A stretch of 36,459 bases of DNA from an uncultured Syntrophus sp. (GTDB lineage: Bacteria; Desulfobacterota; Syntrophia; Syntrophales; UBA5619), in the NCBI GenBank assembly GCA_964403345.1, contig CAYOGU010000002.1:1-36459 (forward strand), read 5' to 3'. This document shows, one piece after another, positions 9,728 through 30,246 of this stretch (its first letter is position 1; each line of letters opens with the position of its first letter). The notes beneath the pieces were generated by a model. It searched no databases and was not told where the DNA came from. It saw nothing but the letters and a program-made list of their open reading frames with translations. Made by a program: the position numbers and the translations under genes.

Positions 9728-9750
9728 GCGTCAGAGCCGAGGGAGGAACC

Positions 9751-10443
9751 ATGGAAGAAGCCAAGCGACATACCAGCGCGGAATACGAGCGTGAGCTCCA
9801 AGAGATACGGGACGGCCTGCTCTACATGGGGGCTCTGACGGAAAAGGCTTTGGAAAAAGGAATCACGGCGCTCGTGGAGAGAGACTCCGCACTGGCCAAA
9901 CAGGTCATCTGCGAAGACGACCAGGTCGACCGTCTCGATTTCGACTTGGAGGAGAAGTGCATTCGCCTTCTGGCTCTCCGCCAGCCCGCCGCCCGGGACC
10001 TGCGGTTCATCACGACATCGATCAAGATCACCGGCCATCTGGAGCGGATCGGCGACATGGCGGCCAACATCGCCGAGAAGGTCCTCATCCTCAACGAGAT
10101 TCCCCAGATCAAGGCCTACATCGATCTGCCGCGGATGGACCAGATCGTCCGGGGGATGATCCGCAGAAGCCTCGACGCTATGGTGAGCGAGGATGTGGAA
10201 CTGGCCCATCGGGTTCGGGAGGAGGATGTCATCATTGATCGGCTTAACGAGCAGATCTTCAGGGAACTGCTCACATTCATGATGGAAGATCCCCATAAGA
10301 TTCAGGTTTGCCTCTACATCATGCAGATCTCCAAGAGTCTCGAACGGATTGCCGATCACGCCGAGGGGATCGCAGACATGGTGATTTACATGATCACGGG
10401 AAAGAGCGTACGACACCAGCCGACTTGCGGACCGAAGGGATGA
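9751..10443 (+). CDS. phoU: Phosphate signalling complex protein PhoU
   Basis: It has two PhoU repeats with the motifs LERIGDMAANIAE and LERIADHAEGIAD. The RBS is GAGGGAGG. Its stop overlaps the phoR ATG (ATGA at 10440-10443). Confidence 0.92.
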   Translation: MEEAKRHTSAEYERELQEIRDGLLYMGALTEKALEKGITALVERDSALAKQVICEDDQVDRLDFDLEEKCIRLLALRQPAARDLRFITTSIKITGHLERIGDMAANIAEKVLILNEIPQIKAYIDLPRMDQIVRGMIRRSLDAMVSEDVELAHRVREEDVIIDRLNEQIFRELLTFMMEDPHKIQVCLYIMQISKSLERIADHAEGIADMVIYMITGKSVRHQPTCGPKG

Positions 10444-12197: not shown

Positions 12198-12898
12198 TGC
12201 AGAAGAGGATCCTCGTTGCCGACGACGAGAAGGACATCGTGGAACTGGTTGCCTACAATCTCGAACGGGAAGGATTCTCCGTCCTGAAGGCCTTGAATGG
12301 CGGAAGCGCCCTGGAATCGATCCGGCGTGACAAGCCGGACCTGGTCGTCTTGGACCTGATGATGCCCGGGGTATCGGGAACAGAGGTATGCCGGATCGTC
12401 CGGGGCATCCCCGAGACGGCGAATCTGCCCATTATCATGCTGACCGCCAAGTCCGAACCTGTGGACCGGATCCTGGGACTGGAGATCGGGGCGGACGACT
12501 ACCTTACCAAGCCTTTTCATGTTCGGGAGCTGATCGCCAGGGTCCGCGCCGTCCTGAGGCGATCGGATCAGCACCCAGAGGAAAACCTCCGGGAGTCTTT
12601 CGATTTCCAGGGGCTCCACGTCGATTTGAAGGCCTACCGCGTGACCCTCGAGGGCAGGGAGGTCGAGCTCAGTTCCCGCGAGTTCAAACTACTGCAATTC
12701 TTCATTGGCCATCCCGGCCGTGTTTACAGCCGCGAACAGCTTCTCGACCGCGTCTGGGGTGACGAGGCTTTTGTGGAACCCCGGACGGTGGATGTCCACA
12801 TCAGCCGCCTAAGGGGGGCAATCGAGGCGGACCCTTCGAACCCACGGTATATCCTGACCGTCCGCGGTATCGGCTACAAGTTCGCAGACGAAGCCTGA
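12194..12898 (+). CDS. phoB: OmpR-family response regulator PhoB-like
   Basis: The receiver domain reads ILVADDEKDI...DLVVLDLMMPG...LTAK. The winged-helix output domain reads LSSREFKLLQFF...VDVHISRLR...IRGIGYKF. Its start overlaps the phoR stop. Confidence 0.9.
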   Translation: MMQKRILVADDEKDIVELVAYNLEREGFSVLKALNGGSALESIRRDKPDLVVLDLMMPGVSGTEVCRIVRGIPETANLPIIMLTAKSEPVDRILGLEIGADDYLTKPFHVRELIARVRAVLRRSDQHPEENLRESFDFQGLHVDLKAYRVTLEGREVELSSREFKLLQFFIGHPGRVYSREQLLDRVWGDEAFVEPRTVDVHISRLRGAIEADPSNPRYILTVRGIGYKFADEA

Positions 12899-13085: not shown

Positions 13086-14924
13086 ATGTATGCCCAGCTG
13101 ATGGAAGAGGCTTCCCGTGATGTGGAGGTCCCCAGCCGCTCCAGGGATGTCGGGGAGACGGAGGTGGATGCCTTTGTCGAGTCGATTCAGGTGACTCCCC
13201 ATTTCCACCCGGTGATCGATCTTTTCTCCGCCTCGGTCACGGGGTTTGAAATCCTCTCCAGAGGCGTCGCCCCTTATGAGACTCCCTGCCGGATGTTCTC
13301 GGCTGCCAAACAGCGGGGGGCGACCTGGGAACTGGAGAGGGCCTGCCGTGTCGCCGCCATGAGGAAGATCGCCTCCCTTCCAGAGCCGTTCCGAAAAGTC
13401 CAGTTTTTTATCAACGTCAGCCCGGATATCTTCAGCGACCCCCGTTTCATCGAGAAATTCACCCAGAAGCGCCTCAGGGAGTATGGCATCGATCAGAGGC
13501 AGATCGTCATCGAGATCACCGAGGAAAAGACTTTCGAGGATTTCAAGCAGTTCGGGACGCTGGTCGCCCATTACGCGAACCAGGGTTTCAAAATCGCTGT
13601 GGACGACTTCGGGTCCGGTTATTCGGGGCTGGTGACCCTGATTGCCTCGACCCCCCATTACTTGAAACTAGATATGGCGATCGTCAGGGATGTCCACCGC
13701 CACGACTACAAACAGAAGATCGTCAAGGCCATTACGGCATTTGCTTCCAGCGTCAACGCCAGGTTGATCGCTGAAGGCGTCGAGTCTTTGGATGAGTTGG
13801 AGGTTCTGGTCCGGTACGGCGTCCGGTATGCCCAGGGCTTCCTCTTCGGTCGGCCCGAGCGGGAACCCTATGCCCTCAAAGAGGAGATGAGAAAGAAACT
13901 CAGGGCGCTGATCGACAAGTACGACCAAGCCACGATCGATGTGGACGAGAAGGTCGCGAGTCTCGTGATCCGCCCCATGACGATCGCCGCCCACACCCTG
14001 CACTGCAAGGATCTGGATATGATATTCAAAAAGCGGACCCATTTGGATCACGTAATCCTCCTCGACGGAGAAAGCATCGCCGGGATGATCACGCGACAGA
14101 ATTTCTATGCGGAAACCGGCGGCGCCTTCGGATATCAACTCTTCCAGAAGAAGCCAGTCGAGGTCGTCTGCAAACCCAATCCCCTGATCGTCGAGGACAA
14201 GATGACGGTGACGATGATGGCGAAACTGGCGATGGATCGCCTTTCGGAAGACCTGTACGATCCGGTTCTGGTGGTGGATGCCGAAGGGAAATTCATGGGG
14301 ACCGTGACCATGAAGCAGGTGATGACCAAATCGCTGGAACTGGAGATCCGCTCCGCCATGGGGGTCAACCCCCTGACGGGATTGCCGGGTAATAACGCGA
14401 TTCACCGCTGGATCCATGATGCCCTGGCTTGGTCCGAATATTCGATCATTTATATCGATCTCGACCATTTCAAGGTTTACAACGACACCTATGGGTTTCT
14501 CATGGGGGATGAGATGCTTTGCCTTACAGCACGGGTCCTGGGCGACTGGCTGAACCGGCTTCCGGAGGGGGCCAGGTTGGGACATATCGGCGGCGACGAC
14601 TTTGTGATCGTTAACCGGGGCATCATTCGGGGAGAGGTATTGGAATGCCTGTGTAGCGGCTTTGATGCCGAGAAACTCGGTCTTTTCAAGAACGAAGACG
14701 TCGAAAGGGGTTGTATCCTTGGAGCGGCGGACCGTCAGGGCAATCCGCTCATCACGCCGCTGATCACCATGAGCGTGGCTGTTATTGACAGCAGCAAAGT
14801 TTGGGTGGACCCGCATCCGGCCCTCTTTTCGGAAGTCGCCGCTTCGCTGAAAAAGAAGGTCAAAAGGCTGACGGCAGAAACAGGGAAGAGTGGATATCTC
14901 TTAGAGCAACGGCTCCATGTTTGA
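13086..14924 (+). CDS. EAL - CBS pair - GGDEF(GGDDF) cyclic-di-GMP turnover protein
   Basis: The EAL-domain residues look intact: GFEILSR, FFINVSP, IEITEE, AVDDFGSGYSG, LKLDMAIV, AEGVES, AQGFLFGRP. A central CBS-like region follows. The C-terminal cyclase fold reads YIDLDHFKVYNDTYGFLMGDEML but has GGDDF instead of GG(D/E)EF and no RxxD I-site. Confidence 0.88.
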   Translation: MYAQLMEEASRDVEVPSRSRDVGETEVDAFVESIQVTPHFHPVIDLFSASVTGFEILSRGVAPYETPCRMFSAAKQRGATWELERACRVAAMRKIASLPEPFRKVQFFINVSPDIFSDPRFIEKFTQKRLREYGIDQRQIVIEITEEKTFEDFKQFGTLVAHYANQGFKIAVDDFGSGYSGLVTLIASTPHYLKLDMAIVRDVHRHDYKQKIVKAITAFASSVNARLIAEGVESLDELEVLVRYGVRYAQGFLFGRPEREPYALKEEMRKKLRALIDKYDQATIDVDEKVASLVIRPMTIAAHTLHCKDLDMIFKKRTHLDHVILLDGESIAGMITRQNFYAETGGAFGYQLFQKKPVEVVCKPNPLIVEDKMTVTMMAKLAMDRLSEDLYDPVLVVDAEGKFMGTVTMKQVMTKSLELEIRSAMGVNPLTGLPGNNAIHRWIHDALAWSEYSIIYIDLDHFKVYNDTYGFLMGDEMLCLTARVLGDWLNRLPEGARLGHIGGDDFVIVNRGIIRGEVLECLCSGFDAEKLGLFKNEDVERGCILGAADRQGNPLITPLITMSVAVIDSSKVWVDPHPALFSEVAASLKKKVKRLTAETGKSGYLLEQRLHV

Positions 14925-16023: not shown

Positions 16024-18465
16024 TTAGTGGTGGACAGCGTCCAGACGGTCGTCTGCGTTCTCGATGGGAGCGCGTACGCGTTCCGCCTCCCGGCGATCGA
16101 AGCGGATGGTGACGATCAGAATGGAAATCAGTCTACGCAGGAGTTCCGGAGGGACATTTCTGTCGCTGACGGCGTATCTGAGGGATTCGGAGCAAACGCC
16201 TTCACCGCCGATCGCCCGCCGGAGGCCGTTCAGGAAATCTCTTTCGCTGCAATCGGCGGCATCGATGCGCTGCAGATCTTCCTCGAGAAAGCGGACCCCT
16301 TCCAGAGCATGGGCCTTGCGCAGGTCGTTGCGGTAGTAGTCCTCGGCGCTGCGGTTGAAGTCAGCGGCCTGCATCTCCATCGGGGAGGCGGCCTTGGCCT
16401 TTTGGAGGATGGCCTGCGTCAGTTTTCCCAGGGCGGAATGGCGGTCGGGGTCTTCCAGCCTCTTTTCAAGGTCGGCGATCCTTTCGGCCATCCCGAGAAC
16501 TTTAATCAGATTCGCCCCGTCTTTCCGGATAATCCGCACGAGGGCCCGGCAATACTCCCGGTGGTGGACCCTCCAGTAGCCGGGATAGCGCCGGCTGGCT
16601 CTGACACGTTGGGTATTTTCGATGATCCGCTGTAGGAAAAGGTTCTGGGTGTCCTGCCGGACGAAAAAGGTGGGGATGCCCACGGCCCGCCCGAAGACAA
16701 TTTGCCGTCTCTCGCTCTCGACAAAGGGACCGTCGGGGATGCGGTTGTGGTCGGCGAGACCTTCGGCAATATACTGGAACGCTAGGGCCGTGAGGAGGTT
16801 CTGCAGATCCACGGCCCCGGCCATATCCTCTTCGAGACTGAAGAAGAGGCTGTAGGAGCGTCCTTCGAAACCGGAAAACCCCATGGTGGCATACTCACGG
16901 AGTTTGTTGAACAGGTAGAGGGACATCCGCTTGTCGAAGACGCCCAGCTCGGCAAGATCCTGCTTGAGTCGGTCATGGTTGTGAAGCATTCCGTCCAGTG
17001 CCGGGCTCTTTTCTGTGCTCCTCAGGGCCACTAGGTAATCGATGAGGCGGAAGTCAGGGAGAAAATCGCCGCGGAGCCTGAAAATGTTACGGATCGCCCT
17101 GTCGAGCCAGGGGGGGCCGAAGGGGGTCACTGTTTTCCTAAAGATGTTGATGTCCGCCTTCTTCTGCCAACGCCTCCAGAGCATGCGCAGGTGGTCGAAA
17201 TCCAGTTCATGGGGAAGGAACCCCAAGACGCATTCCGGATGGAATTCCGAGTAGTCGAGCCGGTAGGGGGTCGCACTGTAAGTACCCACGAAGAGGGGGA
17301 GGAAATGCTCCAGGATTTTGATGACCAGATCCCCGAGGTATTTCTCGTGGCGGGACGTGAAGCCGGAGGCCGGGTCCTTCAGAAGAGCGGTGAGTTTCCG
17401 GCTGCCGAGGCTGACGTGCGTTCCATTGTTGGCCAGACTGATGTTGGAAGTATTCGGAAGGACCACGAGGTTGCGCGTGATGATGCCCGATTCGCGGAGC
17501 TTCCCCAGGGCATTGAGCTGGCTGCGGCTCAGGACCCGATGACACAGGTGCATGTATTCCTTTTTGATCTCGCCGCGGTTCCAACCCGACAGGCAGGGGT
17601 TCATGAAAAGTTCTCGATAAAAGGCGTCGGAGATGCATGCGTTAAGCCTCTTCTGGCGGATTGGTGGATGGGGCGAGTAGAATACCATCGCTCTCTGCCC
17701 GCTCTGCATAAGGCCGAAACGCTGGTTAGCGTACTGAACGAGCAGTTGCGTCAGGAGGAACCGCTTTGCCGATTCCCTGGCCACCTCTCGGCCCATCCCG
17801 GTCCGGGGAGTTAGGGACGAAACCTGGAAGGAACATATCTCGGGCGAGGTGTTGTCGCTCAGGAAGTGATCCATCAACCTGCGTCCAGTCTCGGCCACGG
17901 CGGGGGGCTGTCCGTCGATCGCCTCGGCCAGGGAGAGCTTCAACAGATAACTGATCGGGATGCGGAGATATTCCCGGCCTTCCTGCCGGAAAGTGAAATC
18001 GGTCAGGTCGGTTCGGTATCCCTGGGAGGGGTCGGCCTTATCCGCCAAGAGGTCGCCATTGAGGATCCCTTGGGCGAAGAGTCCCAGCATGTCCCTGGGG
18101 AAGCGGACCCAGCTGTTTTCCCACACGCCGTCGACATTATCCTGGAGGTACTTTTCCAGCTCGGTCATCGCCCGTCCTGGCAGTTCGCCGGAGGCCCTCC
18201 GCCGGATGATGTTGGCCAGGTAGTTGGACCGTGCAATCGTGATGGGGAGATCGACATCTTCCCTCTTTCCGATCACGATGGCCTGAAGCTCAGTTTCGCT
18301 TCCGGCAGTCGTGTCGTAAAGGGAGAAGGGCAGGGCCTCGGCATCAATGCCGGACGGCCCGTAAACGCCAAATTTTTCCGTCGCCTCCCGGGCGGAGAGA
18401 AGACGTTCCTCCGGGCCCCGCATCGGGACCAGGGGGAGGGAGAGGGAGTTTTCAATTCTGCTCAC
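16024..18465 (-). CDS. Large (813 aa) cytoplasmic protein of unknown function; I recognise no family
   Basis: The ORF is uninterrupted and has coding-like composition. GTG start 18465 follows AAGGAA at 6-nt spacing. No TM segment, signal peptide, Walker motif or other motif I can name is present. The antisense ORFs over it are R/G/P-rich shadows. Confidence 0.75.
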   Translation of the reverse strand: MSRIENSLSLPLVPMRGPEERLLSAREATEKFGVYGPSGIDAEALPFSLYDTTAGSETELQAIVIGKREDVDLPITIARSNYLANIIRRRASGELPGRAMTELEKYLQDNVDGVWENSWVRFPRDMLGLFAQGILNGDLLADKADPSQGYRTDLTDFTFRQEGREYLRIPISYLLKLSLAEAIDGQPPAVAETGRRLMDHFLSDNTSPEICSFQVSSLTPRTGMGREVARESAKRFLLTQLLVQYANQRFGLMQSGQRAMVFYSPHPPIRQKRLNACISDAFYRELFMNPCLSGWNRGEIKKEYMHLCHRVLSRSQLNALGKLRESGIITRNLVVLPNTSNISLANNGTHVSLGSRKLTALLKDPASGFTSRHEKYLGDLVIKILEHFLPLFVGTYSATPYRLDYSEFHPECVLGFLPHELDFDHLRMLWRRWQKKADINIFRKTVTPFGPPWLDRAIRNIFRLRGDFLPDFRLIDYLVALRSTEKSPALDGMLHNHDRLKQDLAELGVFDKRMSLYLFNKLREYATMGFSGFEGRSYSLFFSLEEDMAGAVDLQNLLTALAFQYIAEGLADHNRIPDGPFVESERRQIVFGRAVGIPTFFVRQDTQNLFLQRIIENTQRVRASRRYPGYWRVHHREYCRALVRIIRKDGANLIKVLGMAERIADLEKRLEDPDRHSALGKLTQAILQKAKAASPMEMQAADFNRSAEDYYRNDLRKAHALEGVRFLEEDLQRIDAADCSERDFLNGLRRAIGGEGVCSESLRYAVSDRNVPPELLRRLISILIVTIRFDRREAERVRAPIENADDRLDAVHH

Positions 18466-18514
18466 AGACAGTTCCTTTCGAAAGGTTTTCTGATTCTCTT
18501 AAATTCGATTCGTT

Positions 18515-18566
18515 TCTATACGATTCCTGTGACGAGGTGATGACGTTTGGATGAATCCTCCGTGAA
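18515..18566 (-). promoter_or_regulatory. Putative Pho box plus -10 for the 813-aa gene (minus strand)
   Basis: Read on the minus strand, the pentamers are TTCAC (c18562-18566), TTCAT (c18551-18555), GTCAT (c18540-18544) and GTCAC (c18529-18533), at exact 11-bp phasing. TATAGA (c18515-18520) follows after 8 nt. Confidence 0.6.
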
Positions 18567-18692
18567 ACTTGGGCGGAAAGGCGACCGGTGAAGGATCTTC
18601 GCGTTAGCCTTTCTTAAGTTTGCCGTTTTATATGGATGATTCTGATGACCGAATGGATGGTATTCCCATGGAATGGAGCAGCCGACTTCGAT

Positions 18693-18749
18693 TTCATGAG
18701 ATCTTAACGACTCCGTCATATTCGCGTTACAGTTTGATGATTGGATAAT
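18693..18749 (+). promoter_or_regulatory. Putative Pho box plus -10 for the ATP-grasp/amphi-Trp/kinase operon
   Basis: TTCAT 18693, TTAAC 18704, GTCAT 18715 and GTTAC 18726 are spaced exactly 11 bp apart. GATAAT (18744-18749) follows after 13 nt. It lies in the AT-richer divergent intergenic region. Confidence 0.6.
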
Positions 18750-18779
18750 CAAAATTTCGGAGAAGAGGGACCGTTGTTC

Positions 18780-19922
18780 ATGCCATCAATCAGAAACCTC
18801 CAAGATGCCGTGGAGGAAATTACGGAATGGGATCTGCAGCTCTTTGACAAACTGACTACAATGGAACTTACCCCGTTGCAGATCGAACGCATCGTCTGCC
18901 CGGGGAAGATTTTCGAGACAGAAGGGTCCGTTCTGGCCATCCACTGGCACCCGGAGATGGTCGCCCTGCCGCTGGTCGAAACGAGGCTGCGGAGGGTCTA
19001 TCCTCATGCCGGTCAGACTCTGATCATCCCGACTCAGCACAATGAGATCCTCGTCTACGGTGATTACGCGGGTGCCGAGGTAGACTGCCGGGCCGATGCC
19101 TTCAATCGCAAAATTCAGATCCTGCTTCATTTCCGGTCCGAAGAGATCAAAAAGGCCCACAGCCTGAGGTCCATGATTGCCCATACCTGCCAGTATCGGC
19201 AGACGCAGTTGTTCGAGTTTCTGGAAACCTTGGCCGATCCCCGACATGAAGGGTGCCTCATGGAAGCGGCCAGGCATACGGGAACCGAGAAGGCAATGGT
19301 CCTCTTTACCGGAGTTCTGGTCGGAAAGCTCAAGAAAATGATTGAATTGAGGTCGGATTCGATTCCCGACATGGCACTGAAGAACAAGCTGGTTATCAGT
19401 TACATCAACGCCCATCGGGAGTTTTACGATTCCCTTGCAATCGACCGGTCGGTGATCTTTGCGGCCGGAGTCAAGGAGGTCGTGAAGCGGCGATTTCGTC
19501 TCGACTATTTCTATGAGGTGAACGAGATCATTGAGGAAGCCAGAGGGTTGGACGGCGGGGTCATCGTGCCCCATCCGGAGCAGTTCTGGCCCGTCCTACT
19601 GGCCGATTATGATGTGGACGGCTATGAGGTCTGGAATCCTCAATCCCGGGAGTTTACGGAATTCTTGATTCAGACGGTGATCAGGAAGAACAAGGCCGGG
19701 CAGGGAGGCAGACGCCTGCTGGTCATGATGGGGGACGATACCCATCTGAGCGAAAAAATCCTTGATCCTGAACAACAGGATCCCGACAAAGCCGCCCGTG
19801 AAATCGGCCATCAACCCCCTTGGGACGACAAGGCCGTCCGCAAGATTCTCAATATGGGGGATTTCGATAAGAGAAAAGTCATCGACGAGTACCAATCTCG
19901 CCTTGCCGGCGGAACGGTTTGA
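18780..19922 (+). CDS. Hypothetical protein with a PHP-like (metal-dependent phosphoesterase) motif series
   Basis: Track ORF is 18741..19922 (TTG). ATG 18780 follows GGAGAAGAGGGA. The ordered motifs resemble the PHP fold: AIHWHPE (HxH), IPTQHNE, IVPHPEQ, GYEVWNP, MMGDDTHL (DxH). There is a long insertion between the second and third motifs. The family call is tentative. Confidence 0.55.
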   Translation: MPSIRNLQDAVEEITEWDLQLFDKLTTMELTPLQIERIVCPGKIFETEGSVLAIHWHPEMVALPLVETRLRRVYPHAGQTLIIPTQHNEILVYGDYAGAEVDCRADAFNRKIQILLHFRSEEIKKAHSLRSMIAHTCQYRQTQLFEFLETLADPRHEGCLMEAARHTGTEKAMVLFTGVLVGKLKKMIELRSDSIPDMALKNKLVISYINAHREFYDSLAIDRSVIFAAGVKEVVKRRFRLDYFYEVNEIIEEARGLDGGVIVPHPEQFWPVLLADYDVDGYEVWNPQSREFTEFLIQTVIRKNKAGQGGRRLLVMMGDDTHLSEKILDPEQQDPDKAAREIGHQPPWDDKAVRKILNMGDFDKRKVIDEYQSRLAGGTV

Positions 19923-19933
19923 GAGGGGGCTGC

Positions 19934-20215
19934 ATGGAACAGGGCAAGGACTTTCAACACGAATCCATCGAAGACAAGGAATCCGTTGTCCGATACCTCC
20001 AAACCCTTTCCGATGGGTTCCGGAGCCAGAGGCTGGAGTTTCAGACCGGCCAGGAGGAAATCCTCCTTGAGCCGTCGGGCCTGATCCAGGTCGAGATCAA
20101 GGCCAGAAGCCGTCATCGGAAGTCGAAGCTTTCCATCAAGTTTGTCTGGAAGGATCAACGGCAAGCCGAAGGCAAGCCGAAGCGGGTCCTGGCCATCCGG
20201 ACCAATCAGGGATGA
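19934..20215 (+). CDS. Small amphi-Trp-domain-like protein (paralog 1)
   Basis: ATG 19934 follows GAGAGGGGG. The pattern shared with the 25098 and 25658 products is: helix (VVRYLQTLSDGFRSQRL), then ILLEPSGLIQVEIKA, then KSKLSIKFVWKD with the near-terminal Trp. Its stop overlaps the next ATG. Confidence 0.7.
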   Translation: MEQGKDFQHESIEDKESVVRYLQTLSDGFRSQRLEFQTGQEEILLEPSGLIQVEIKARSRHRKSKLSIKFVWKDQRQAEGKPKRVLAIRTNQG

Positions 20216-21849
20216 GTCCGATGTTCGTCTTCAAGGGCCTCAATGAAAACTTCATGTTTCTCGTTGTGCGGATCCGGCGACAGTTGGAGGACACGCTCGG
20301 TGTCCTGGAATTCGGTGAGAAGACCCTTCCGGACCGCATGAGGACCCGCGAGGACTATATCGACAACCTCAAGATCACCATCGAACGGAAGAGCTACCGG
20401 AAGATTTTGAGGAGCCGCTCGGAAGACGACCGGGTCATCCGGATGATGGGGTCCCTCAACACGGCCGTGAGCAATCTCGAGGAAATCGGCGACTACCTGA
20501 TCAACATCGTGACCCAGGTGCAGTATTTAAGCGACCCCACCTTCATGGGTCGCTTCGACTACCAGGCTTATTTCCGATTGATTGCGGATGCTCTCGATCT
20601 GATCGTGCCCAGCCTGTTTAAGGGAATCATCAAGGACGCCCTGTCCGTCTGCCGGACGGAGATCGAGCTGGATCAGCTCTACAAGCGGGATTTCGATGCC
20701 GTCATGGCGATTCTCCGGGAGGGGCGCGATATCGGCAATGCGGTCACCGCCCTCATGATCCTCCGTTATCTGGAGCGGATCGGCGATTCGCTTCTCAACA
20801 TCGGAGAGGCCATCATTTCCGCCTATGCCGGCAGCAGGCTGAAACTCTTCGAGTACCTGGCCCTGCAGGACCATCTCCCCGCGGCCGGCGGTAACTTCAC
20901 CATCGAAGACATTCATGCCGAGACCCGTTCGGGATGCCGCGTCGAAAAGGTCATATCCGCGGATATCCCGAAAGGCGTCCAAGAAGCGATCTTCAAGGAG
21001 GGGGATCTGGGGAAGATCGAACAGGAGAAGGAAAAACTAGGGCGCTGGCAGGAGATCATGCCGGGTTTGACGCCGAAGGTCTTCGGTTTTCAGCCCCTCA
21101 ACGGCAAGGCGTTCATGCTCCTGGAGTGCATCGACGGCCTGAATTTTCAGGAGATCGTCATCAAGCAGAACGGCGTGTTGTTCCGGCAGGCCTTCGGAGA
21201 ACTGAAGAACGTCATGGATGCGGTCTGGACACGGACCAAACTTCCCGAGGCTAAACCGGCGAACTTCATGCGGCAGCTCCTGGGGAAATTACCCGAAGTC
21301 TATGAGGTCCACTCCTCCTTCTACAGGCCGACTCAGATGATCGGCAGCCTGGAACGGCCGCCCTTCGTCGACCGGCTGGAGCATGCGGCGAGGATCGAAG
21401 CGGTCCTGATGCCCCCCTTTTCCGTCTTCATCCATGGCGACTTCAACGCGGACAATATTCTCTACAACCACCGGGAAAACCGCATTTACTATATCGACCT
21501 CCATCGTTCCCACGACCTTGACTATATACAGGACGTGTCCGTCTTCATGATTTCGTATTTCCGGATGCCGTTATTCAATCCAGGCATGCGCAACTGGTTG
21601 TCGGAGGTGATCGATGAGTTCTACTGCTTCGCGAGGCATTTCTCGGAGCGGCACGGGGACGAGACCTTTGATGCCCGATTGGCTCTTGGCCTGATCCGGT
21701 CTCTGATCTCCTCCACGAGGTTTATCCTCAAGGAGGATTTTTCCAAGGACCTTTTTCTGCGTGGGATCTACCTGCTGGATCGGCTTTTGGAGCATGAGGG
21801 AAGGCCATGGGAACAGTTCCGCGTTCCCCGGGATATATGGGTTTATTGA
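20212..21849 (+). CDS. PhoU-domain / aminoglycoside-phosphotransferase-like kinase fusion protein
   Basis: The N-terminal half has two PhoU-type repeats ending LEEIGDYLINIV and LERIGDSLLNIGEAI. The C-terminal half has an APH/choline-kinase-type catalytic loop FIHGDFNADNILY and YYIDLHRS. The ATG overlaps the preceding stop (ATGA at 20212-20215). Confidence 0.8.
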   Translation: MSPMFVFKGLNENFMFLVVRIRRQLEDTLGVLEFGEKTLPDRMRTREDYIDNLKITIERKSYRKILRSRSEDDRVIRMMGSLNTAVSNLEEIGDYLINIVTQVQYLSDPTFMGRFDYQAYFRLIADALDLIVPSLFKGIIKDALSVCRTEIELDQLYKRDFDAVMAILREGRDIGNAVTALMILRYLERIGDSLLNIGEAIISAYAGSRLKLFEYLALQDHLPAAGGNFTIEDIHAETRSGCRVEKVISADIPKGVQEAIFKEGDLGKIEQEKEKLGRWQEIMPGLTPKVFGFQPLNGKAFMLLECIDGLNFQEIVIKQNGVLFRQAFGELKNVMDAVWTRTKLPEAKPANFMRQLLGKLPEVYEVHSSFYRPTQMIGSLERPPFVDRLEHAARIEAVLMPPFSVFIHGDFNADNILYNHRENRIYYIDLHRSHDLDYIQDVSVFMISYFRMPLFNPGMRNWLSEVIDEFYCFARHFSERHGDETFDARLALGLIRSLISSTRFILKEDFSKDLFLRGIYLLDRLLEHEGRPWEQFRVPRDIWVY

Positions 21850-21899
21850 TTCCGCAGGTGGAGTTTCGAGAAGCGATTCGGCGGAAAGGATGACAAGGG

Positions 21900-22781
21900 A
21901 TGGTGAAGATCGGTGTCGTCGGCATTTCCGGGAGGTGGTCCTCGGAAGAGATGACGGCGGCCGTCGAAAAGAAGACGGGCTTTCGGCTTCTTGTGGAGAT
22001 GGACCGCGTTCGCTATGAATCGCGGCGGGAGACGCTGTTCTACAAGGGGGTCGATCTGGGCACCCTCGACGGCCTGATCGTGAAGAAGATTGGGGCGCGG
22101 TTCAGTCCGGACCATCTCCAACGTCTGGAGATGCTGCGTTACCTTAGGGCGCGGGGGGTCAGGGTCTTCTCAGATCCCGCCGCCATTGCCCGCTGCCTGG
22201 ATCGTCTCAGCTGCACCCTCACCCTACGGCTCGGGGGGATTCCCATGCCGGAGATAGTCCTGACGGAACATATCGAGGCGGCCGAGGCGGCCGTCCGTCG
22301 GTTCGGACAGGCCGTCTTCAAGCCGCTTTTCACATCCAAGGCCCGAGGAATGGAGGTGATGAGGAGTGATGATCCGGAACTACGGGAAAGCATCGGTGCC
22401 TTTAGAGAACAGGGCAATTGCCTCTTGTATGTGCAGAAGAAGATCGACCTGCCGGGCCGTGACCTGGGGATCGCCTTTCTCCGGGGGCGCTATGTGGGCG
22501 CCTACGCCCGCGTCGCCCCGGCCGGGTCCTGGAACACGACGACGGTCAACGGTGGGCGCTACGAGGCCGCGAAACCCTCCCGGGACATTGTCGAACTGGC
22601 CTCCCGTGCTGCGGCGCTGTTCGGGCTCGATTTCACCTGTGTAGACGTCGTGGAAGGCCACGAAGGCCCGATGGTCTTCGAGGTCTCGGCCCTGGGCGGG
22701 TTTCGTGGACTCTGGGAGGCTCAGGGGATCAATATGGCTGAGATGATCGTGGATTCCGTCCTGGAGGCCGTTCATGAATAA
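21900..22781 (+). CDS. RimK-like ATP-grasp ligase
   Basis: The ATP-grasp layout reads AVFKPLFTSKARGMEVM, LLYVQKKIDLPGRDLGIAFL and MVFEVSALGGFRG. Confidence 0.8.
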   Translation: MVKIGVVGISGRWSSEEMTAAVEKKTGFRLLVEMDRVRYESRRETLFYKGVDLGTLDGLIVKKIGARFSPDHLQRLEMLRYLRARGVRVFSDPAAIARCLDRLSCTLTLRLGGIPMPEIVLTEHIEAAEAAVRRFGQAVFKPLFTSKARGMEVMRSDDPELRESIGAFREQGNCLLYVQKKIDLPGRDLGIAFLRGRYVGAYARVAPAGSWNTTTVNGGRYEAAKPSRDIVELASRAAALFGLDFTCVDVVEGHEGPMVFEVSALGGFRGLWEAQGINMAEMIVDSVLEAVHE

Positions 22782-23865
22782 TCCTCAGACGGTTCTGTTC
22801 CAGGATCTCTTCGACGATCTCCGGAATCGCTATCCGACCCACGAGCGGCTCTTTGTCGGGATAGGGGAGTTGATCATCCAGGTCAAGTCGAATTCGCCGG
22901 ACCTGATGGCGGAGTTGCGCCGTTACTTCAAGGAGTTCACGTGCTGGGAATCCCAAGAGGACATCCTGATCTATGCCATCGAGTCCGATGAGATGCCCTT
23001 GCCCCTGGTCCTCCGGCAGAAGGGTCCCGATCCGGGCAAGAACAGGGTCAAGGAAGAATTTGCGGACCTGGCGGGCGGAAGGATCGTCCGGAAACGCCTG
23101 ACCGGTCTCTGTTTCCTCTTCAACGGGCACGACAACATGGCGGTCGGACCCTGTCGGGCCAACAGCAATCAGATCGTCAATTTCATCAACAACCGCTTTA
23201 TCGAGCGGATGCTCCGGGGAGGGAGCCTCCTGTCCCATGCCGCTGGTGTTGCCATGGGGGACCGAGGGCTGGCGCTCGCCGGTTTCTCCGGGAGCGGCAA
23301 GTCGAGCCTCGCGCTCCACCTTCTGACACGGGGGGCCTCCTTCGTCAGCAACGACCGGTTGATGACCGCGGAGCGCTGGGGACGCCTCAGGATGTACGGC
23401 ATTCCCAAGCATCCCCGCGTCAATCCGGGGACCCTCCTGTCCGTCCCGGTGCTTCGAGAGGTGATCAGCGACGAGGATCGGCGGTTGTACGCCGATTGGG
23501 ATTCCGAGGCATTATGGCACCTGGAGCGAAAGTACGACGTGATGATCGACGAGGTCTTCGGCGAGAAGAAATTTCATTTGAGCGCCCTGATGAAGGGTCT
23601 GCTTTTGCTCAACTGGAGGAGAGACGGCGGGACCCTTTGCATTCGCCCCGTGGAAATCGACCGGCGGCGGGACCTCCTGGCTGCCTTCATCAAGCCTCCC
23701 GGTCTTTTCTTTTTTCCTGAGGAACTGGAGACGCCTCCCGATTTTTCAAGCGAACGCTACGTGGAGCAGCTCCGCAACTGTGCCGTCTTTGAGGCGACCG
23801 GAGAGATCGATTTCGACGGGGCGGCGGTTTTTTGTCTCGACTTCCTGCGGGAGGAAGGGACATGA
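22774..23865 (+). CDS. HPr-kinase-related P-loop kinase
   Basis: The P-loop and downstream motif GFSGSGKSSLALHLLTRGASFVSNDRLM mirror HprK (GxSGxGKS...GhxLvaDD). Its start overlaps the ATP-grasp stop by 8 nt. Confidence 0.75.
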   Translation: MNNPQTVLFQDLFDDLRNRYPTHERLFVGIGELIIQVKSNSPDLMAELRRYFKEFTCWESQEDILIYAIESDEMPLPLVLRQKGPDPGKNRVKEEFADLAGGRIVRKRLTGLCFLFNGHDNMAVGPCRANSNQIVNFINNRFIERMLRGGSLLSHAAGVAMGDRGLALAGFSGSGKSSLALHLLTRGASFVSNDRLMTAERWGRLRMYGIPKHPRVNPGTLLSVPVLREVISDEDRRLYADWDSEALWHLERKYDVMIDEVFGEKKFHLSALMKGLLLLNWRRDGGTLCIRPVEIDRRRDLLAAFIKPPGLFFFPEELETPPDFSSERYVEQLRNCAVFEATGEIDFDGAAVFCLDFLREEGT

Positions 23866-25079
23866 AGACCCTGCAGGAACCGGGACAGCTTCCGCAGCGG
23901 ATCGTTCTGCAACGCCGCGCCTTGCTGCCTGACAAGCTGAAGATCGCCCGTTATGAAAAGGCGCCCGAACTCGGACCGCGTCTGCTCTTCTTCAGCGGAG
24001 GCAATGCCCTCAAGCGGTTCAGCAAGACCCTGATCCGGTATACCCACAATTCCGTCCACATCATCACCCCCTTCGATTCCGGGGGCAGTTCCGCCGAGAT
24101 CCGCCGTGCCTTTCGGATGCTCTCCATCGGGGACGTGAGGAACCGCCTCATGGCCCTTGCCGATCAGTCCATCAAGGGCAACCCAGAAATCTATCGACTT
24201 TTTTCCTACCGGCTTCCTGCGGACGATCCATCAGACCGACTCCGGGAGAAGCTGCAGATGATGGCCGAAGGCCTGGATTCCCTCGTCGACGGCATCCCCG
24301 TGCCGATGCGGGCCATCGTCTGCGGCCATATCGGGGACTTCCTCCGGCTCATGCCCGGCGACTTCGATCTTCGGGGGGCGAACATCGGCAATATCATCCT
24401 GACGGCTGGCTATCTGAATCACCATCGCCACATCGAGACGGTCATCTATCTATTTTCAAAACTGGTGGAGGTCCAGGGACTGGTTCGGCCCGTCGTCACC
24501 GACGACCTCCACCTGGCGGCGAGGCTCCAAAGCGGTCAGATCCTGGTGGGACAGCATCGGATCACCGGCGATTCGTTTCTCAAGGCGAGAAGCCCCATCG
24601 ATGAGCTGTTCCTGAGCGCTTCGGCCGATCAGCCCGAGCGGGTCCAGACGGAGATTTCCTCCGAAACAGCGGCCCTGATCGACGGCGCCGAGATCATCTG
24701 TTACCCCATGGGGAGCTTCTATTCGAGTGTTCTGGCGAATCTCCTTCCGCGTGGCGTGGGCGCCGCCATTGCCGCCAACCGTTGTCCCAAAGTGTTTGTC
24801 CCCAATACGCTCCCCGACACGGAGCAGGCAGGGATGTCCCTGGGCGATGCCGTCCGGACCATGATCCGGTGTCTTCAGGGGGATCGTTCGGGAGACCCCA
24901 CCGACTACCTGGACTGGATCGTTCTGGACAGCAGGTGGGGGAGGTATCCTTTCGACCTTGATCTGGAGAGGATCCGTGAGTGGGGGATCGGGATCCTCGA
25001 AGCGACGCTGGTCTCCGAGGAAAGTTCGCCCTACGTTGATCCTGAACATCTCTGCCATGTCCTTCTGTCCCTAACATAA
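23862..25079 (+). CDS. CofD/YvcK-family (2-phospho-L-lactate-transferase-like) protein
   Basis: Track ORF is 23832..25079. ATG 23862 overlaps the preceding TGA (ATGA). Family-typical motifs are LLFFSGGNALKRF, ITPFDSGGSSAEIRR and GDVRNRL. Confidence 0.78.
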   Translation: MKTLQEPGQLPQRIVLQRRALLPDKLKIARYEKAPELGPRLLFFSGGNALKRFSKTLIRYTHNSVHIITPFDSGGSSAEIRRAFRMLSIGDVRNRLMALADQSIKGNPEIYRLFSYRLPADDPSDRLREKLQMMAEGLDSLVDGIPVPMRAIVCGHIGDFLRLMPGDFDLRGANIGNIILTAGYLNHHRHIETVIYLFSKLVEVQGLVRPVVTDDLHLAARLQSGQILVGQHRITGDSFLKARSPIDELFLSASADQPERVQTEISSETAALIDGAEIICYPMGSFYSSVLANLLPRGVGAAIAANRCPKVFVPNTLPDTEQAGMSLGDAVRTMIRCLQGDRSGDPTDYLDWIVLDSRWGRYPFDLDLERIREWGIGILEATLVSEESSPYVDPEHLCHVLLSLT

Positions 25080-25097
25080 ATCCCCAGGAGGTGCCGT

Positions 25098-25541
25098 ATG
25101 TCCGACCAATATCTGCGGGTCAGAACGGGAACGGGATTCTCTTTTGCCGTCCGCCACTTGGAGGGCTTGATCGAATGTCTCAAGCGGGGGACCATTTACC
25201 TCAATCACGAGGGGAAGTCGATTCTGCTTAAACCTCGGACGCCGATCTCCATCGAACTGGAAGCGGCAAGTAAAGCGAGCCATGGGATCTGCAAAGAGAA
25301 AATGGTCCTCAAACTCTCGTGGAAGATCCGGGAATCCTGGTCGTTAGGGGAAGAGAGCTTTTCGATTCTCCGATCAGAGCCGGCAGACTGCGTGCACTCT
25401 GACCGATGGGGATTTCTCCCTGAACCGTCTGGTGAAGTGGACGGAAACAGCCTGGATGCGGGAGCGAACGGCACGCTCAGAAATGAAACGTTTTCCGAAG
25501 CGATTAAGAAAAAAACGTGGGACATGGCACGAAACCATTGA
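25098..25541 (+). CDS. Amphi-Trp-domain-like protein with ~60-aa C-terminal extension (paralog 2)
   Basis: The RBS is AGGAGG. The domain reads AVRHLEGLIECLKRGTIYL ... ILLKPRTPISIELEA ... KMVLKLSWKI. An unrelated acidic/polar tail follows. Confidence 0.7.
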   Translation: MSDQYLRVRTGTGFSFAVRHLEGLIECLKRGTIYLNHEGKSILLKPRTPISIELEAASKASHGICKEKMVLKLSWKIRESWSLGEESFSILRSEPADCVHSDRWGFLPEPSGEVDGNSLDAGANGTLRNETFSEAIKKKTWDMARNH

Positions 25542-25657
25542 AAGCGTCCGTGCGGAAGAAGCCCCTCGAAAAATAGCGCCTCTCCAAAAGGGAGAAGGCA
25601 ATCTGGCGCTGCTTAGGTATCGCCTGTTTTTCAGCACTTCATCAGGAGGTAAACAGT

Positions 25658-25957
25658 ATGGCAAGTCAACAATTGAAGGTCAAATCGAAAGTGGCATTGG
25701 TGGAAGTGATCAAACATCTGGAACACCTGGTGACATCCCTCAAGGAAGGTCAGCTCTGCATCCGGAAAAATGACGAGGTCATCAACCTGAAACCCCAGGA
25801 TCCGGTTACTTTCGAACTGGAGGCCGAGGCCAAGCTGGAGAAGGACAATCTGCGGGAGAAACTCGTCATCGAACTGAAATGGAAAAAGGGCGAGGCTGCG
25901 CCGATGGAAGGCGACAGTTTGTCCATCAGCCATCTTGATCCGGCGTCCGAACTCTGA
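25658..25957 (+). CDS. Small amphi-Trp-domain-like protein (paralog 3)
   Basis: The RBS is AGGAGG (25644-25649). The domain reads VIKHLEHLVTSLKEGQLCI ... INLKPQDPVTFELEA ... KLVIELKWKK. Confidence 0.72.
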   Translation: MASQQLKVKSKVALVEVIKHLEHLVTSLKEGQLCIRKNDEVINLKPQDPVTFELEAEAKLEKDNLREKLVIELKWKKGEAAPMEGDSLSISHLDPASEL

Positions 25958-26027
25958 GGAACGAACGCAATCCCCTTTTCCTTCCAGGGAAGTCCGGGAA
26001 GGAAAAGGGGACAACAGGGGATAACCG

Positions 26028-26951
26028 ATGATACGGTCTTACAACATCGAAGACGATCGCCTGGTCGAATGTCTTCCGACTATTGCGCGGGTTGCTTGGT
26101 TTGCCGCCCCCGATGAGGACGAGCAGGGGGTCCTGATTCACCATCACGGGCTTGATGAGCATACCCTCCATTCCACCCTGGACCCGGACGAACAGGCCCG
26201 CATCGAGACCGAGCCGAGCCATCGGGCGGTGATCTTCAAGGTTCCCCGGAACCATGTCCCCGGAGGGGACCTGGAATTCAAGGTTACGTCCGTCGGTTTC
26301 TTCCTCTTTGCGGATCTTTTGATCGTCGTCTCTGCCGATGAACCTGCACCTTTCTCGGGGAAGCCCTTTTCCAGAATCGGCCGTCCGGAGGAGGTGATGC
26401 TGAAACTCATCAATGCCTCCATCTCTCTCTTCCGGACCCATCTGCAGATCATCGCCCGGGTTTCAGAGGACCTGTCGGAAAAGATCAGTGCCTCCATGGA
26501 GAACCGGTATCTGCTGCAGCTCTTCGACCTCGAAAAGAGTCTAGTTTACTATCTCAACGCCATGTCGTCCAACAGCGCCCTCCTGGAGAAGATGAGGCAC
26601 CTGGGTGGGCAGATGCTGCGATCTCCCGAGGACCGGGAATTCCTTGATGACATCATCATCGAGAATTACCAGTGCTTCAAGCAGGCCAGGATGTATTCCA
26701 ATATCCTCTCGTCGATGACGGCGGCTCGGGCCTCCATCGTCAGCAACAACCTGAACATTCTCATGAAGCGTCTGAACATCGTCACGATCGGCATCATGAT
26801 CCCCACGCTCGTGGTCAGCACCTTCTCCATGAACGTGGCGATCCCCCTGCAGAAAAACGAGTACGCCTTCTGGATCATCCTCGGTCTCTCGGTGATCTCC
26901 CTGATCGGCGTGCTGGGGGTTTGGAGATACTTCAGGAGGGATCCGCTCTGA
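26028..26951 (+). CDS. CorA-family divalent-cation channel homolog with SMN instead of GMN
   Basis: The CorA topology is present: a soluble N-domain, then two C-terminal TM helices (IVTIGIMIPTLVVSTF / FWIILGLSVISLIGVLGVW). The signature position reads FSMNVAIPL, where CorA has YGMNF. Confidence 0.7.
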   Translation: MIRSYNIEDDRLVECLPTIARVAWFAAPDEDEQGVLIHHHGLDEHTLHSTLDPDEQARIETEPSHRAVIFKVPRNHVPGGDLEFKVTSVGFFLFADLLIVVSADEPAPFSGKPFSRIGRPEEVMLKLINASISLFRTHLQIIARVSEDLSEKISASMENRYLLQLFDLEKSLVYYLNAMSSNSALLEKMRHLGGQMLRSPEDREFLDDIIIENYQCFKQARMYSNILSSMTAARASIVSNNLNILMKRLNIVTIGIMIPTLVVSTFSMNVAIPLQKNEYAFWIILGLSVISLIGVLGVWRYFRRDPL

Positions 26952-28762: not shown

Positions 28763-28820
28763 GCAACCATCTATTAACGGCTCGGTCATCATTCTGCAAC
28801 ATCGTTGCGGTAACTATATA
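28763..28820 (+). promoter_or_regulatory. Putative Pho box plus -10, PIN-PhoH promoter
   Basis: GCAAC 28763, TTAAC 28774, GTCAT 28785 and GCAAC 28796 are spaced exactly 11 bp apart. Ten nt later comes TAACTA (28811), overlapping TATATA (28815-28820). Confidence 0.55.
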
Positions 28821-28872: not shown

Positions 28873-30246
28873 GTGGTGCAAAAAACCTATATCCTGGATA
28901 CGAACATTCTCCTGCACAACCCTCAGGCGATCTATGCCTTTGACGACAACGAAGTGGTGATTCCGCTGGCGGTCATCGAGGAGGTCGACCGCCAGAAGAG
29001 ACGACAGGACGAGATCGGGAAGAATGCCCGGGAGGTCTCCCGGGCCCTGGATGATCTGCGTGGAAAGGGGAGGCTTGCGGAGGGCGTGGTTCTGCCAGGA
29101 GGTGGTTCTCTCCGGATTGAGGTCAATCATTGGTCAAGCGGCGAGCTACCTGCGGGGATTGATTGGAGCCAGCCGGACAACCGGATCCTGGCGATCGCTT
29201 ATCAACTCCAGCGTGAGCGCTGCAATGTCCATCTGGTCACCAAGGACCTCAACCTCCGGATCAAGGCGGATGTGATCGGGATCGCTTCGGAGGATTTCTA
29301 CCGGGACAAGGTCCAATGCGCCGTTCTGTACGATGGAGCGGGGAATCGGAGCGTCACGGAAGCTCAGATTAATCTTTTTCACCGTACCAAGAAGTTGACC
29401 ATGCCCGAGGAATGGGGAGGATTGCCGAACCAGTTTTTCATCCTGAAGAATCCAGCCAATCCTTCCCAGTCGGCCTTGGGACGATGCCAGGACAATACCC
29501 TGGTGCCTTTGCTCCACGGTGACGTGGAGTGCTTCGGAATCAAGGCCCGCAACAAGGAGCAGCGGTTTGCCATGGACCTGCTTCTGAACGATCAGATCCG
29601 CGCCGTAACGCTCGTGGGAAGAGCCGGGACGGGAAAGACGTTGCTTGCTCTGGCCGTTGGGTTGCAGAAGGTACTCGATGAAAGGGTTTACTCCCGCCTG
29701 TTGATCACCCGCCCTGTGGTTCCGGTGGGAAACGACATCGGCTATCTGCCCGGTGACAAGGACGAGAAGATGCGGCCTTGGATGCAGCCGATCTTCGACA
29801 ACATCGAACACATCTTCAGCAACGTCCCGGATGCCAGGGAGGGACGCGGCAGGCTTCCTGCGAGCGGGAAGAACGGCCGGGAACCCGATGAGGAACGGAT
29901 GAAATCCCTGCGAATCGTCGAGCACCTTCTCGAAAGGGGTGTCTTGGAGATGGAACCCTTGACCTACATCCGGGGGCGGAGCATCCCCAGACAGTTCATC
30001 ATCTGCGACGAGGCACAGAATCTCAGTCCGCAGATGATCAAAACGATCGTCACCCGGATCGGGGAGGGATCGAAGATCGTGTTCACCGGCGATCCGGAAC
30101 AAATCGACCACCCCTACCTAGACGCGAGTAGCAACGGGTTGACCTATTTCGTGGAGCGATTCAAAGGCGAGAGGATTGCCGGCCATGTGACCCTCTGCAA
30201 AGGGGAACGTTCGGCCCTTGCCGAGTTGGGGGCGCAGATCCTCTGA
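28873..30246 (+). CDS. phoH2: PIN-domain / PhoH-like ATPase fusion (PhoH2/YlaK type)
   Basis: The RBS is AGGAGG, with GTG at 28873/28876. The PIN N-terminus reads YILDTNILLHNP...VIPLAVIEEVD. The PhoH P-loop is VGRAGTGKTLLALA, followed by FIICDEAQNL and FTGDPEQID. Confidence 0.88.
   Translation: MVQKTYILDTNILLHNPQAIYAFDDNEVVIPLAVIEEVDRQKRRQDEIGKNAREVSRALDDLRGKGRLAEGVVLPGGGSLRIEVNHWSSGELPAGIDWSQPDNRILAIAYQLQRERCNVHLVTKDLNLRIKADVIGIASEDFYRDKVQCAVLYDGAGNRSVTEAQINLFHRTKKLTMPEEWGGLPNQFFILKNPANPSQSALGRCQDNTLVPLLHGDVECFGIKARNKEQRFAMDLLLNDQIRAVTLVGRAGTGKTLLALAVGLQKVLDERVYSRLLITRPVVPVGNDIGYLPGDKDEKMRPWMQPIFDNIEHIFSNVPDAREGRGRLPASGKNGREPDEERMKSLRIVEHLLERGVLEMEPLTYIRGRSIPRQFIICDEAQNLSPQMIKTIVTRIGEGSKIVFTGDPEQIDHPYLDASSNGLTYFVERFKGERIAGHVTLCKGERSALAELGAQIL

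Follow-up and report, generated by a model that had tools for sequence, protein, structure and literature searches.

A PhoU module joined to an APH-fold kinase within the GAK cassette, and its likely link to the Pho regulon

We describe a gene that joins a PhoU module to a kinase of the aminoglycoside phosphotransferase (APH) and choline kinase fold. It lies in a 36,459-nucleotide stretch of DNA from an uncultured Syntrophus sp. (contig CAYOGU010000002.1), here called the window. Its product is almost certainly a real PhoU and APH-fold kinase protein and a core member of the GAK cassette, whose models TIGR04354-04357 stand in NCBIfam as hypothetical equivalogs. What is new here is the joining of a PhoU module to a eukaryotic-like kinase and, as an additional finding, a link between the cassette and the phosphate-acquisition (Pho) genes.

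How proteins of the PhoU family read phosphate status is a long-standing open question. The fusion wires a PhoU module to an enzymatic output, kinase activity, that is measurable in vitro in the presence or absence of phosphate, metals, or PstB. It also provides a first functional handle on the GAK cassette, which annotation databases list by name and which occurs widely among sulfate reducers, syntrophs, Nitrospinota, Planctomycetota, and candidate phyla. Two constant, unmodelled members are added to the cassette: the PhoU/APH kinase and a PHP-fold phosphoesterase. A literature search returned nothing on the GAK system, its accessions, or a PhoU-kinase fusion, save a proteome table with an abundant amphi-Trp protein; a paper on fitness of D. 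alaskensis G20 under phosphate limitation mentions no such gene. In public databases, members are named "PhoU domain-containing protein," "phosphate signaling complex PhoU family protein," "phosphotransferase," or "hypothetical protein," and the "PhoU" labels on many of them would mislead inference of Pho regulons.

Two families in a single protein

The fusion gene and its landmarks are as follows.

20212..21849, + strand: PhoU-domain/APH-fold kinase fusion gene; intact open reading frame (ORF), ATG start, 545 aa
20239..20829, + strand: PhoU module, aa ~10-206; two repeats, six helices (Pfam, PDB profile, AlphaFold2, Foldseek)
20476..20511, + strand: repeat-1 signature LEEIGDYLINIV, aa 89-100; E90 and D94 invariant (ExxxD)
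20770..20814, + strand: repeat-2 signature LERIGDSLLNIGEAI, aa 187-201; E188, R189, G191, and D192 invariant
20896..21846, + strand: APH/choline-kinase-fold kinase domain, aa ~229-545 (Pfam, PDB profile, AlphaFold2, Foldseek)
20992..21003, + strand: FKEG with invariant K262, the putative beta3 ATP-binding lysine (alignment column; model strand 259-265)
21433..21465, + strand: catalytic loop HGDFNADNILY, aa 408-418; Brenner motif HxDxxxxN, with H408, G409, D410, N412, and N415 invariant
21487..21501, + strand: YYIDL, aa 426-430; invariant D429, the metal-binding Asp, DFG equivalent

The initial annotation, made from the sequence alone, had proposed PhoU and APH folds for the two halves, and four kinds of analysis bear this out. 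Pfam finds PhoU (PF01895) in two stretches (E 1.9e-17; 63.8 bits against a cut-off of 23.5) and APH (PF01636) at residues 287-453 (E 9.4e-07; 29.3 bits against a gathering threshold of 23.2). A family profile built from 29 fusion homologues matches the PDB sequences of PhoU 4q25 over residues 16-223 (3e-20) and of APH(3')-Ia 4feu over residues 241-445 (2.5e-05). The AlphaFold2 model, with a predicted local distance difference test score (pLDDT) of 88.4 and a predicted template modelling score (pTM) of 0.75, places helices at residues 10-206, followed by a linker and, from residue ~229, a bilobal alpha/beta kinase. Foldseek retrieves the PhoU structures 4q25, 1t72, and 1sum for the N-terminal half (template modelling (TM) score 0.81-0.84, root-mean-square deviation 2.3-2.8 A), and APH(3'), fructosamine-3-kinase, and choline/ethanolamine kinases for the C-terminal half, with E values down to 1.5e-07 (4ej7, probability 1.0). 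The motifs first quoted for the fusion all lie where they had been placed, and the motifs offered for comparison, LERIGDMAANIAE and LERIADHAEGIAD, are found in the canonical PhoU resident in the window. BLAST of the PhoU half against that resident PhoU is weak (29% over 102 aa) with the repeats out of register, and is insufficient by itself to establish homology. We take the product to be a genuine two-domain cytoplasmic protein.

We scored invariance over 29 fusion sequences of 40-67% identity. In the PhoU half the invariant sites are D51, E90, D94, E150, D154, E188, R189, G191, and D192. The signatures align to the LERIGD motifs of the PhoU structures 4q25 and 1t72, and both metal-site E/D-x-x-x-D signatures are intact; on this alignment, the module keeps the sites that define its family. 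In the kinase half the invariant sites are the glycine-rich S240-G241, K262, E272, H408, G409, D410, N412, N415, and D429. E272 lies within a model helix (266-282) directly after the strand that bears K262, and by their positions in the model the two residues would form the Lys/Glu pair of a kinase. Since the full catalytic set is invariant, the kinase half is very probably active.

Canonical PhoU (TIGR02135; 4q25, 1t72, 1sum) shares with the fusion two PF01895 repeats that form a six-helix bundle, the LE(R/E)IGD and D-x-x-I-D signatures, both invariant in the fusion, and a genomic link to pst/phoBR. The two differ in that canonical PhoU is a stand-alone protein of ~230 aa encoded with pstSCAB, whereas the fusion has 545 aa, adds a 320-aa kinase, and sits inside the GAK cassette. 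Over residues 9-202 the fusion scores 58.6 bits against TIGR02135, under the equivalog cut-off of 130.25, and coexists with the canonical PhoU of the window; it also falls short of NF008332 (36.6 bits against a cut-off of 342). The initial annotation had described PhoU proteins as normally stand-alone. This holds in general, but PhoU domains are also fused to NptA-type Na/Pi cotransporters, where they contribute to Pho signalling and phosphate homeostasis (PMC13170248). NptA thus offers a precedent for a PhoU module covalently joined to an effector; its partner is a membrane transporter, whereas that of the fusion is a soluble kinase in a multi-enzyme operon.

The architecture is widespread. 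A search of 5.8 billion proteins gave 1128 fusion homologues, the 120 best of which are all 538-558 aa long and all carry PF01895; a kinase family, PF01636 or PF02958, is precomputed in all but three of these 120. In a scan of one genome per species, 515 genomes had a relative. At phylum level these represent eight groups or more, with members in Desulfobacterota, Nitrospinota, Planctomycetota, Ignavibacteria, Spirochaetia, Acidobacteriota, Myxococcota, Zixibacteria, GN15, and FCPU426. We examined the 80 best loci, and in every one the PhoU and kinase halves form a single ORF. With the kinase half as query, 342 clusters were found at E <= 0.001 among 1.84 billion representatives, and so small a number database-wide marks a tight, distinctive kinase family. 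In nearly all of the 150 best representatives the kinase occupies residues ~235-545 of a ~545-aa protein. Short matches are few and most start inside PhoU repeat 2 (MGDSLLNIGEA...), which identifies them as truncated calls rather than split genes. The kinase domain almost never occurs without the PhoU half.

These results bear on two alternatives. The first is that the gene reflects a frameshift or assembly artefact, or that a pseudokinase half is attached to a merely long PhoU. Public annotation as a "phosphate signaling complex PhoU family protein" and the few shorter homologues would fit such a reading, and the initial annotation had held that separate genes in close relatives would speak for an artefact. 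The halves are a single gene in the 120 best homologues and in all 80 loci (the best of 515 genomes), across many independent assemblies; the short homologues are mostly truncated calls; every catalytic residue is invariant; and the TIGR02135 score given above lies well under its cut-off. We consider this alternative refuted, or at the least extremely improbable.

The second alternative, an aminoglycoside or macrolide resistance phosphotransferase, is suggested by the PDB, where the kinase half matches APH(3') enzymes best. With APH structures it shares 14-18% identity, and the APH(3') equivalog NF033068 reaches 20.9 bits against a cut-off of 205 through just a 40-residue match at the catalytic loop. 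The gene has fixed chromosomal synteny and no resistance or mobile-element context. The likelihood of a resistance function is practically nil. APH(3'), the choline/ethanolamine kinases, and fructosamine-3-kinase (clan PKinase; PF01636/PF01633/PF02958) share with the fusion a bilobal fold, the Lys-Glu pair, HGDxNxxN, and the metal-binding Asp; the fusion kinase differs from them in its 11-18% identity, its own tight family, and its N-terminal PhoU.

The GAK cassette around the fusion

The cassette is encoded on a single strand in the order (XXXCH protein), PHP phosphoesterase, amphi-Trp protein, PhoU/APH fusion, GAK ATP-grasp enzyme, HprK-related kinase B, CofD-like protein. Synteny was assessed by tblastn over the 80 best loci, and unsupervised clustering of all ORFs gave the same set. 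The members in the window, with their occurrence among the loci and their offset, are listed below.

18780..19922, + strand: orf393, first operon gene, predicted PHP-fold metal-dependent phosphoesterase (AlphaFold2 and Foldseek); 70/80 loci, -1.5 kb
19934..20215, + strand: amphi-Trp protein 1, 93 aa; TIGR04354, 61.9 bits against a cut-off of 31; 73/80 loci, -0.3 kb
21900..22781, + strand: GAK ATP-grasp enzyme; TIGR04356, 402.5 bits against a cut-off of 300; 76/80 loci, +1.65 kb
22774..23865, + strand: HprK-related kinase B; TIGR04355, 453.7 bits against a cut-off of 200; 63/80 loci, +2.55 kb
23862..25079, + strand: GAK CofD-like protein; TIGR04357, 502.7 bits against a cut-off of 340; 48/80 loci, +3.6 kb
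25098..25541, + strand: amphi-Trp-like protein 2; TIGR04354, E 5.2e-06, 26.7 bits, weak and under the cut-off of 31
25658..25957, + strand: amphi-Trp protein 3; TIGR04354, 44.4 bits

The count for the CofD-like gene is lowered because many contigs end before its position. Both the GAK-type neighbours and the several amphi-Trp genes first noticed around the fusion are confirmed, and the question raised at the outset, whether the fusion always sits in such clusters, is answered with yes for the loci examined, with an ATP-grasp gene directly downstream in 76 and an amphi-Trp gene directly upstream in 73 of the 80. Seen from the fusion side, the fusion is an obligate core subunit of the GAK cassette. 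All four modelled components of the GAK system (TIGR04354-04357) adjoin it on the same strand with scores above their cut-offs. The GAK catalogue has no model for the PhoU/APH or the PHP-fold protein, though both are as constant as the modelled members.

The genes are tightly packed. The TGA stop of amphi-Trp 1 overlaps the ATG of the fusion (ATGA), and over 72 loci the median gap between the amphi-Trp stop and the fusion start is about 6-10 nt; this arrangement indicates translational coupling of the two genes. The ATP-grasp and HprK-B genes overlap as well, and the ATG of the CofD-like gene at 23862, within a longest ORF that runs from 23832, overlaps the HprK-B stop. An alternative fusion start, ATG 20221, agrees with the N-termini of homologues. 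The longest ORF of orf393 opens at TTG 18741, and the likely operon start is ATG 18780. More generally, the TTG starts of the longest ORFs are probably wrong at 18741/18780, 19919/19934, 20212/20221, and 23832/23862; ATGs with purine-rich upstream sequence or ATGA overlaps fit better and agree with the homologue N-termini.

Profile searches gave orf393 no Pfam, NCBIfam, or PDB sequence match. It has 1585 homologues, and its AlphaFold2 model (pLDDT 91.8) shows a PHP fold with an inserted helical domain. Foldseek matches it to 3e0f (5e-05)/3o0f, to RNase AM 9etk, and to 2yb1 with bound Mn, AMP, and phosphate. Invariant His, Asp, and Glu residues (HWHPE, PHPE, GDDxH) are compatible with a PHP metal site. 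On the strength of the model, orf393 is a predicted PHP-type metal phosphoesterase, and its family is a candidate new Pfam/NCBIfam family.

The amphi-Trp proteins carry an N-terminal F-x-H-E-S-L-Q-D motif in which Ser16 is kept in 85% of 66 orthologues, and the Trp is near-invariant. By sequence, the amphi-Trp protein has no significant PDB relative. One such protein, DITHS69_2464, is among the 20 most abundant in the Dissulfuribacter thermophilus proteome (PMC13490349), so amphi-Trp proteins can reach very high expression. Beyond TIGR04356, the best scores of the ATP-grasp enzyme are to the glutamate ligases MptN, the RimK family, and LysX, with CofF weak; the CofD-like protein matches PF01933.

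The constant neighbours of the fusion form a trio with the kinase: phosphoesterase, small protein, and kinase. On the complete chromosome of Solidesulfovibrio sp. DCME (locus L074, 7833-11635) the cluster ends after the fusion and is followed by a convergent PAS/CHASE histidine kinase, which indicates that the PHP/amphi-Trp/kinase trio can occur with no ATP-grasp, HprK-B, or CofD-like gene in the 10 kb that follow. Loci L060 and L069, both on short contigs, resemble this arrangement. An XXXCH-type protein of ~200 aa, with the C-terminus ...K-x-C-H-x-x-[YH]-x and an amphi-Trp-like N-terminus, occurs in 39 of the 80 loci at -2.2 kb (e.g., L009, 7736-8374); none was found in the window, and its closest relatives also lack it. 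We take the XXXCH-domain protein to be a GAK component, as in the TIGRFAMs catalogue.

A defence function was considered and dropped, as the PADLOC defence models matched none of the six core proteins. A scan for sigma-70 promoters and terminators over 18300-26100 performed no better than on shuffled sequences. After the cassette, a CorA-family Mg/Co channel gene (26028-26951, + strand) is present in the window, in L001, and in two Syntrophales-type loci, L003 and L004 (60% identity); this adjacency may be lineage-specific, or may have to do with the metals that the kinases and the PHP enzyme require.

Phosphate genes and PhoB boxes

Taken together, Pho genes and PhoB boxes make the greater part of the 36-kb window an island of phosphate acquisition. 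These genes and sites are the following.

6171-6187: PhoB-box match upstream of pstS1
6224-12898: pstS-C-A-B-phoU, PhoR-like kinase, phoB
9751-10443: canonical resident PhoU; TIGR02135, 215.6 bits, above the cut-off
16024-18465, - strand: ORF of 813 aa that diverges from the GAK operon; belongs to no family in Pfam or NCBIfam
18529..18545, - strand: PhoB-box match facing the divergent 813-aa gene
18714..18730, + strand: PhoB-box match CGTCATATTCGCGTTAC, 50-66 nt upstream of ATG 18780
28784-28800: site upstream of PhoH2 with 2 mismatches to the transporter-promoter pattern
28873-30246: PhoH2
33388-30725, - strand: phnCDE
33456-33472, - strand: PhoB-box match upstream of phnCDE
34653-34669: PhoB-box match upstream of the second pstS
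34715-35539: second pstS

An 11-bp-phased direct repeat lies upstream of pstS1, and a similar repeat lies upstream of the GAK operon. A pattern drawn from these two sites has exact matches, in the correct orientation, at the phnC and pstS2 promoters. Since this pattern was partly derived from the GAK site and is to that extent circular, we re-tested with two others. A pattern from the three transporter promoters, with 2 mismatches allowed, gave 11 matches in the window against 1.67 expected, three of them in the intergenic region between the GAK operon and the divergent gene. The second pattern follows the PhoB box derived experimentally in D. vulgaris, (c/t)GT(n)AC repeats (PMC3333781); written as YGTNAY-N5-YGTNAC, it is degenerate and is the sole pattern independent of the GAK site. 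In the window this pattern matches exactly at 6 sites, where 0.12 would be expected; five are in promoter regions and the sixth is intragenic.

The association recurs in other genomes. In 16 of the 80 loci, genes of pst/phoU/phoBR are found no more than 10 kb from the cassette, in at least six arrangements; by our own estimate, a locus chosen at random would have a pst operon this close in roughly 1% of genomes. In Desulfovibrionales the cassette comes directly after phoB-phoR-pstB-phoU. In Desulfococcus (L037) the genes form one same-strand array with gaps of at most 103 bp, pstSCAB-phoU-XXXCH-PHP-amphiTrp-PhoU/APH-grasp-HprKB-CofD. Desulfurivibrio has pstB-phoU-phoB upstream of the cassette; in FCPU426 and Spirochaetia the cassette is followed by phoB-phoR and pstSCAB; and a Syntrophales locus (L003) has PhoH2 upstream and phoR-phoU-pstB convergent downstream. 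In a 420-bp region about the point where the first cassette gene starts, YGTNAY-N5-YGTNAC occurs 10 times at 8 loci against 0.3-0.4 expected, an enrichment of about 25-fold, with 3 matches on the opposite strand. Seven of the box-bearing loci are additional to L001, the close relative of the window, and several boxes are in tandem with an 11-bp phase.

Together, the boxes of the window, the adjacency to pst/phoU/phoBR, and the enrichment of boxes across genomes make it likely, at the level of sequence, that the GAK cassette belongs to the Pho regulon. The initial annotation had suggested that the fusion couples phosphate status to a kinase. Such coupling is plausible, and its support is now stronger, because the PhoB boxes and the pst/phoU/phoBR adjacency back a phosphate connection independently of that suggestion.

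Some further observations concern the neighbourhood of these sites. Two weaker PhoB-box-like sites, 87 bp apart (25777-25793 and 25864-25880, + strand), lie inside amphi-Trp 3, upstream of the CorA-like gene, and could be an internal promoter or chance matches. Among the 80 loci, the divergent 813-aa ORF recurs only in L001. Against L001, the 91%-identical relative, it shows 125 substitutions at third codon positions, with 45 and 34 at the others, and this excess marks it as a real gene. An EAL-CBS-GGDEF protein is encoded between phoB and the GAK cassette (13086-14924, + strand); in D. vulgaris, genes for EAL/HD phosphodiesterases are reported as members of the PhoB regulon (PMC3333781).

Candidate roles of the kinase

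We propose a mechanism in which phosphate scarcity would induce the GAK operon. The PhoU module would serve as the regulatory input, reading intracellular inorganic phosphate (Pi), metal, or the state of PstB/PhoR, and would gate the attached kinase. The kinase would then phosphorylate the co-translated upstream amphi-Trp protein, with the conserved Ser of F-x-H-E-S-L-Q-D as the candidate site; the PHP phosphoesterase would reverse this phosphorylation, and the ATP-grasp, HprK-B, and CofD-like enzymes would act downstream. Taken as a whole, we judge the case for this mechanism to be evenly balanced. With the NptA-fused PhoU domains as precedent, the chance that the PhoU half is a regulatory input for Pi status falls just short of even. 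That the amphi-Trp protein, our favoured candidate, is the substrate we suggest more tentatively. The fusion had first been cast as a candidate regulatory entry point for the operon, but it may just as well catalyse a single step.

Several points weigh against the proposed mechanism. The interdomain linker (residues 220-260) is modelled at low confidence, with pLDDT ~60. The loci are not phylogenetically independent. Adjacency to pst genes or a box is found in only about a third of the loci, and the second half-site of the GAK box departs at two positions from that of the three transporter boxes. The signal sensed is debated even for canonical PhoU. Ser16 is replaced by Ala or Phe in some amphi-Trp orthologues, and the nearest structural relatives of the kinase are small-molecule kinases.

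The last of these points leads to the main rival, a small-molecule pathway, which we rate as possible though rather unlikely. Here the product of the cassette would be a metabolite or cofactor tail with a phosphodiester link and added glutamate, much as in the synthesis of F420 and tetrahydrosarcinapterin: the kinase would make a phospho-intermediate, the CofD-like protein would transfer it, and the MptN/CofF-like ATP-grasp enzyme would add glutamate. Amphi-Trp proteins would act as carriers or scaffolds, or be unrelated partners, and the PhoU half would still be regulatory. This rival draws on the structural matches to APH(3'), fructosamine-3-kinase, and choline/ethanolamine kinases, on the resemblance of the ATP-grasp enzyme to MptN, the RimK family, LysX, and weakly CofF, and on the PF01933 match of the CofD-like protein. 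In addition, the segment past D429 (IDLHRSxxxDYxQD) is short and APH-like, and unlike the activation loop of a protein kinase. On the other side, APH-fold enzymes include protein kinases too, the amphi-Trp gene sits tight against the kinase gene in 72 loci, and it is kept in the minimal module of three genes, from which the ATP-grasp and CofD-like genes are missing.

A second rival takes the PhoU half as a docking module rather than a sensor. On this view the module would anchor the kinase on PstB or on the PAS domain of PhoR, and the protein would act back on Pho signalling or Pst transport, for instance through phosphorylation of PhoR, PstB, or PhoU partners. Canonical PhoU works through binding of PstB and PhoR, and the cassette lies directly after pstB-phoU in six loci. 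NptA-fused PhoU domains modulate PhoPR activation (PMC13170248). Against docking, the constant partners over the 80 loci are GAK genes rather than pst or phoR, a pst gene within 10 kb is absent from most loci, and the window also encodes a separate, canonical PhoU. Docking is possible but fits the synteny less well, and we think it improbable.

Other small-protein systems offer a comparison for the amphi-Trp proteins. In RimK-S6 and LysX-LysW-LysZ, an ATP-grasp ligase acts on a small protein, and the LysW pathway includes a kinase. The GAK cassette likewise combines a RimK/LysX-family ATP-grasp enzyme, co-encoded small proteins, and kinases. It differs in that the amphi-Trp C-termini are unconserved and lack an acidic LysW- or S6-like tail; across the amphi-Trp proteins we found no conserved acidic C-terminus suited to RimK/LysX-type ligation.

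Extending the proposed mechanism, the GAK cassette may form a new phosphate-starvation arm, in which a Pi-gated PhoU-kinase and a PHP phosphatase would cycle phosphate on abundant amphi-Trp proteins while the ATP-grasp, HprK-like, and CofD-like enzymes add modifications. Together, these activities would amount to either a switch for phosphate status at the post-translational level or a phosphate buffer made of protein. As a joint claim this is speculative and, on balance, doubtful. If true, such an arm would be present in hundreds of anaerobic and sediment bacteria. Cultured hosts exist, among them Desulfolutivibrio sulfoxidireducens (WP_176632531.1) and Desulfonatronum lacustre (WP_028572222.1), and the prediction is therefore testable.

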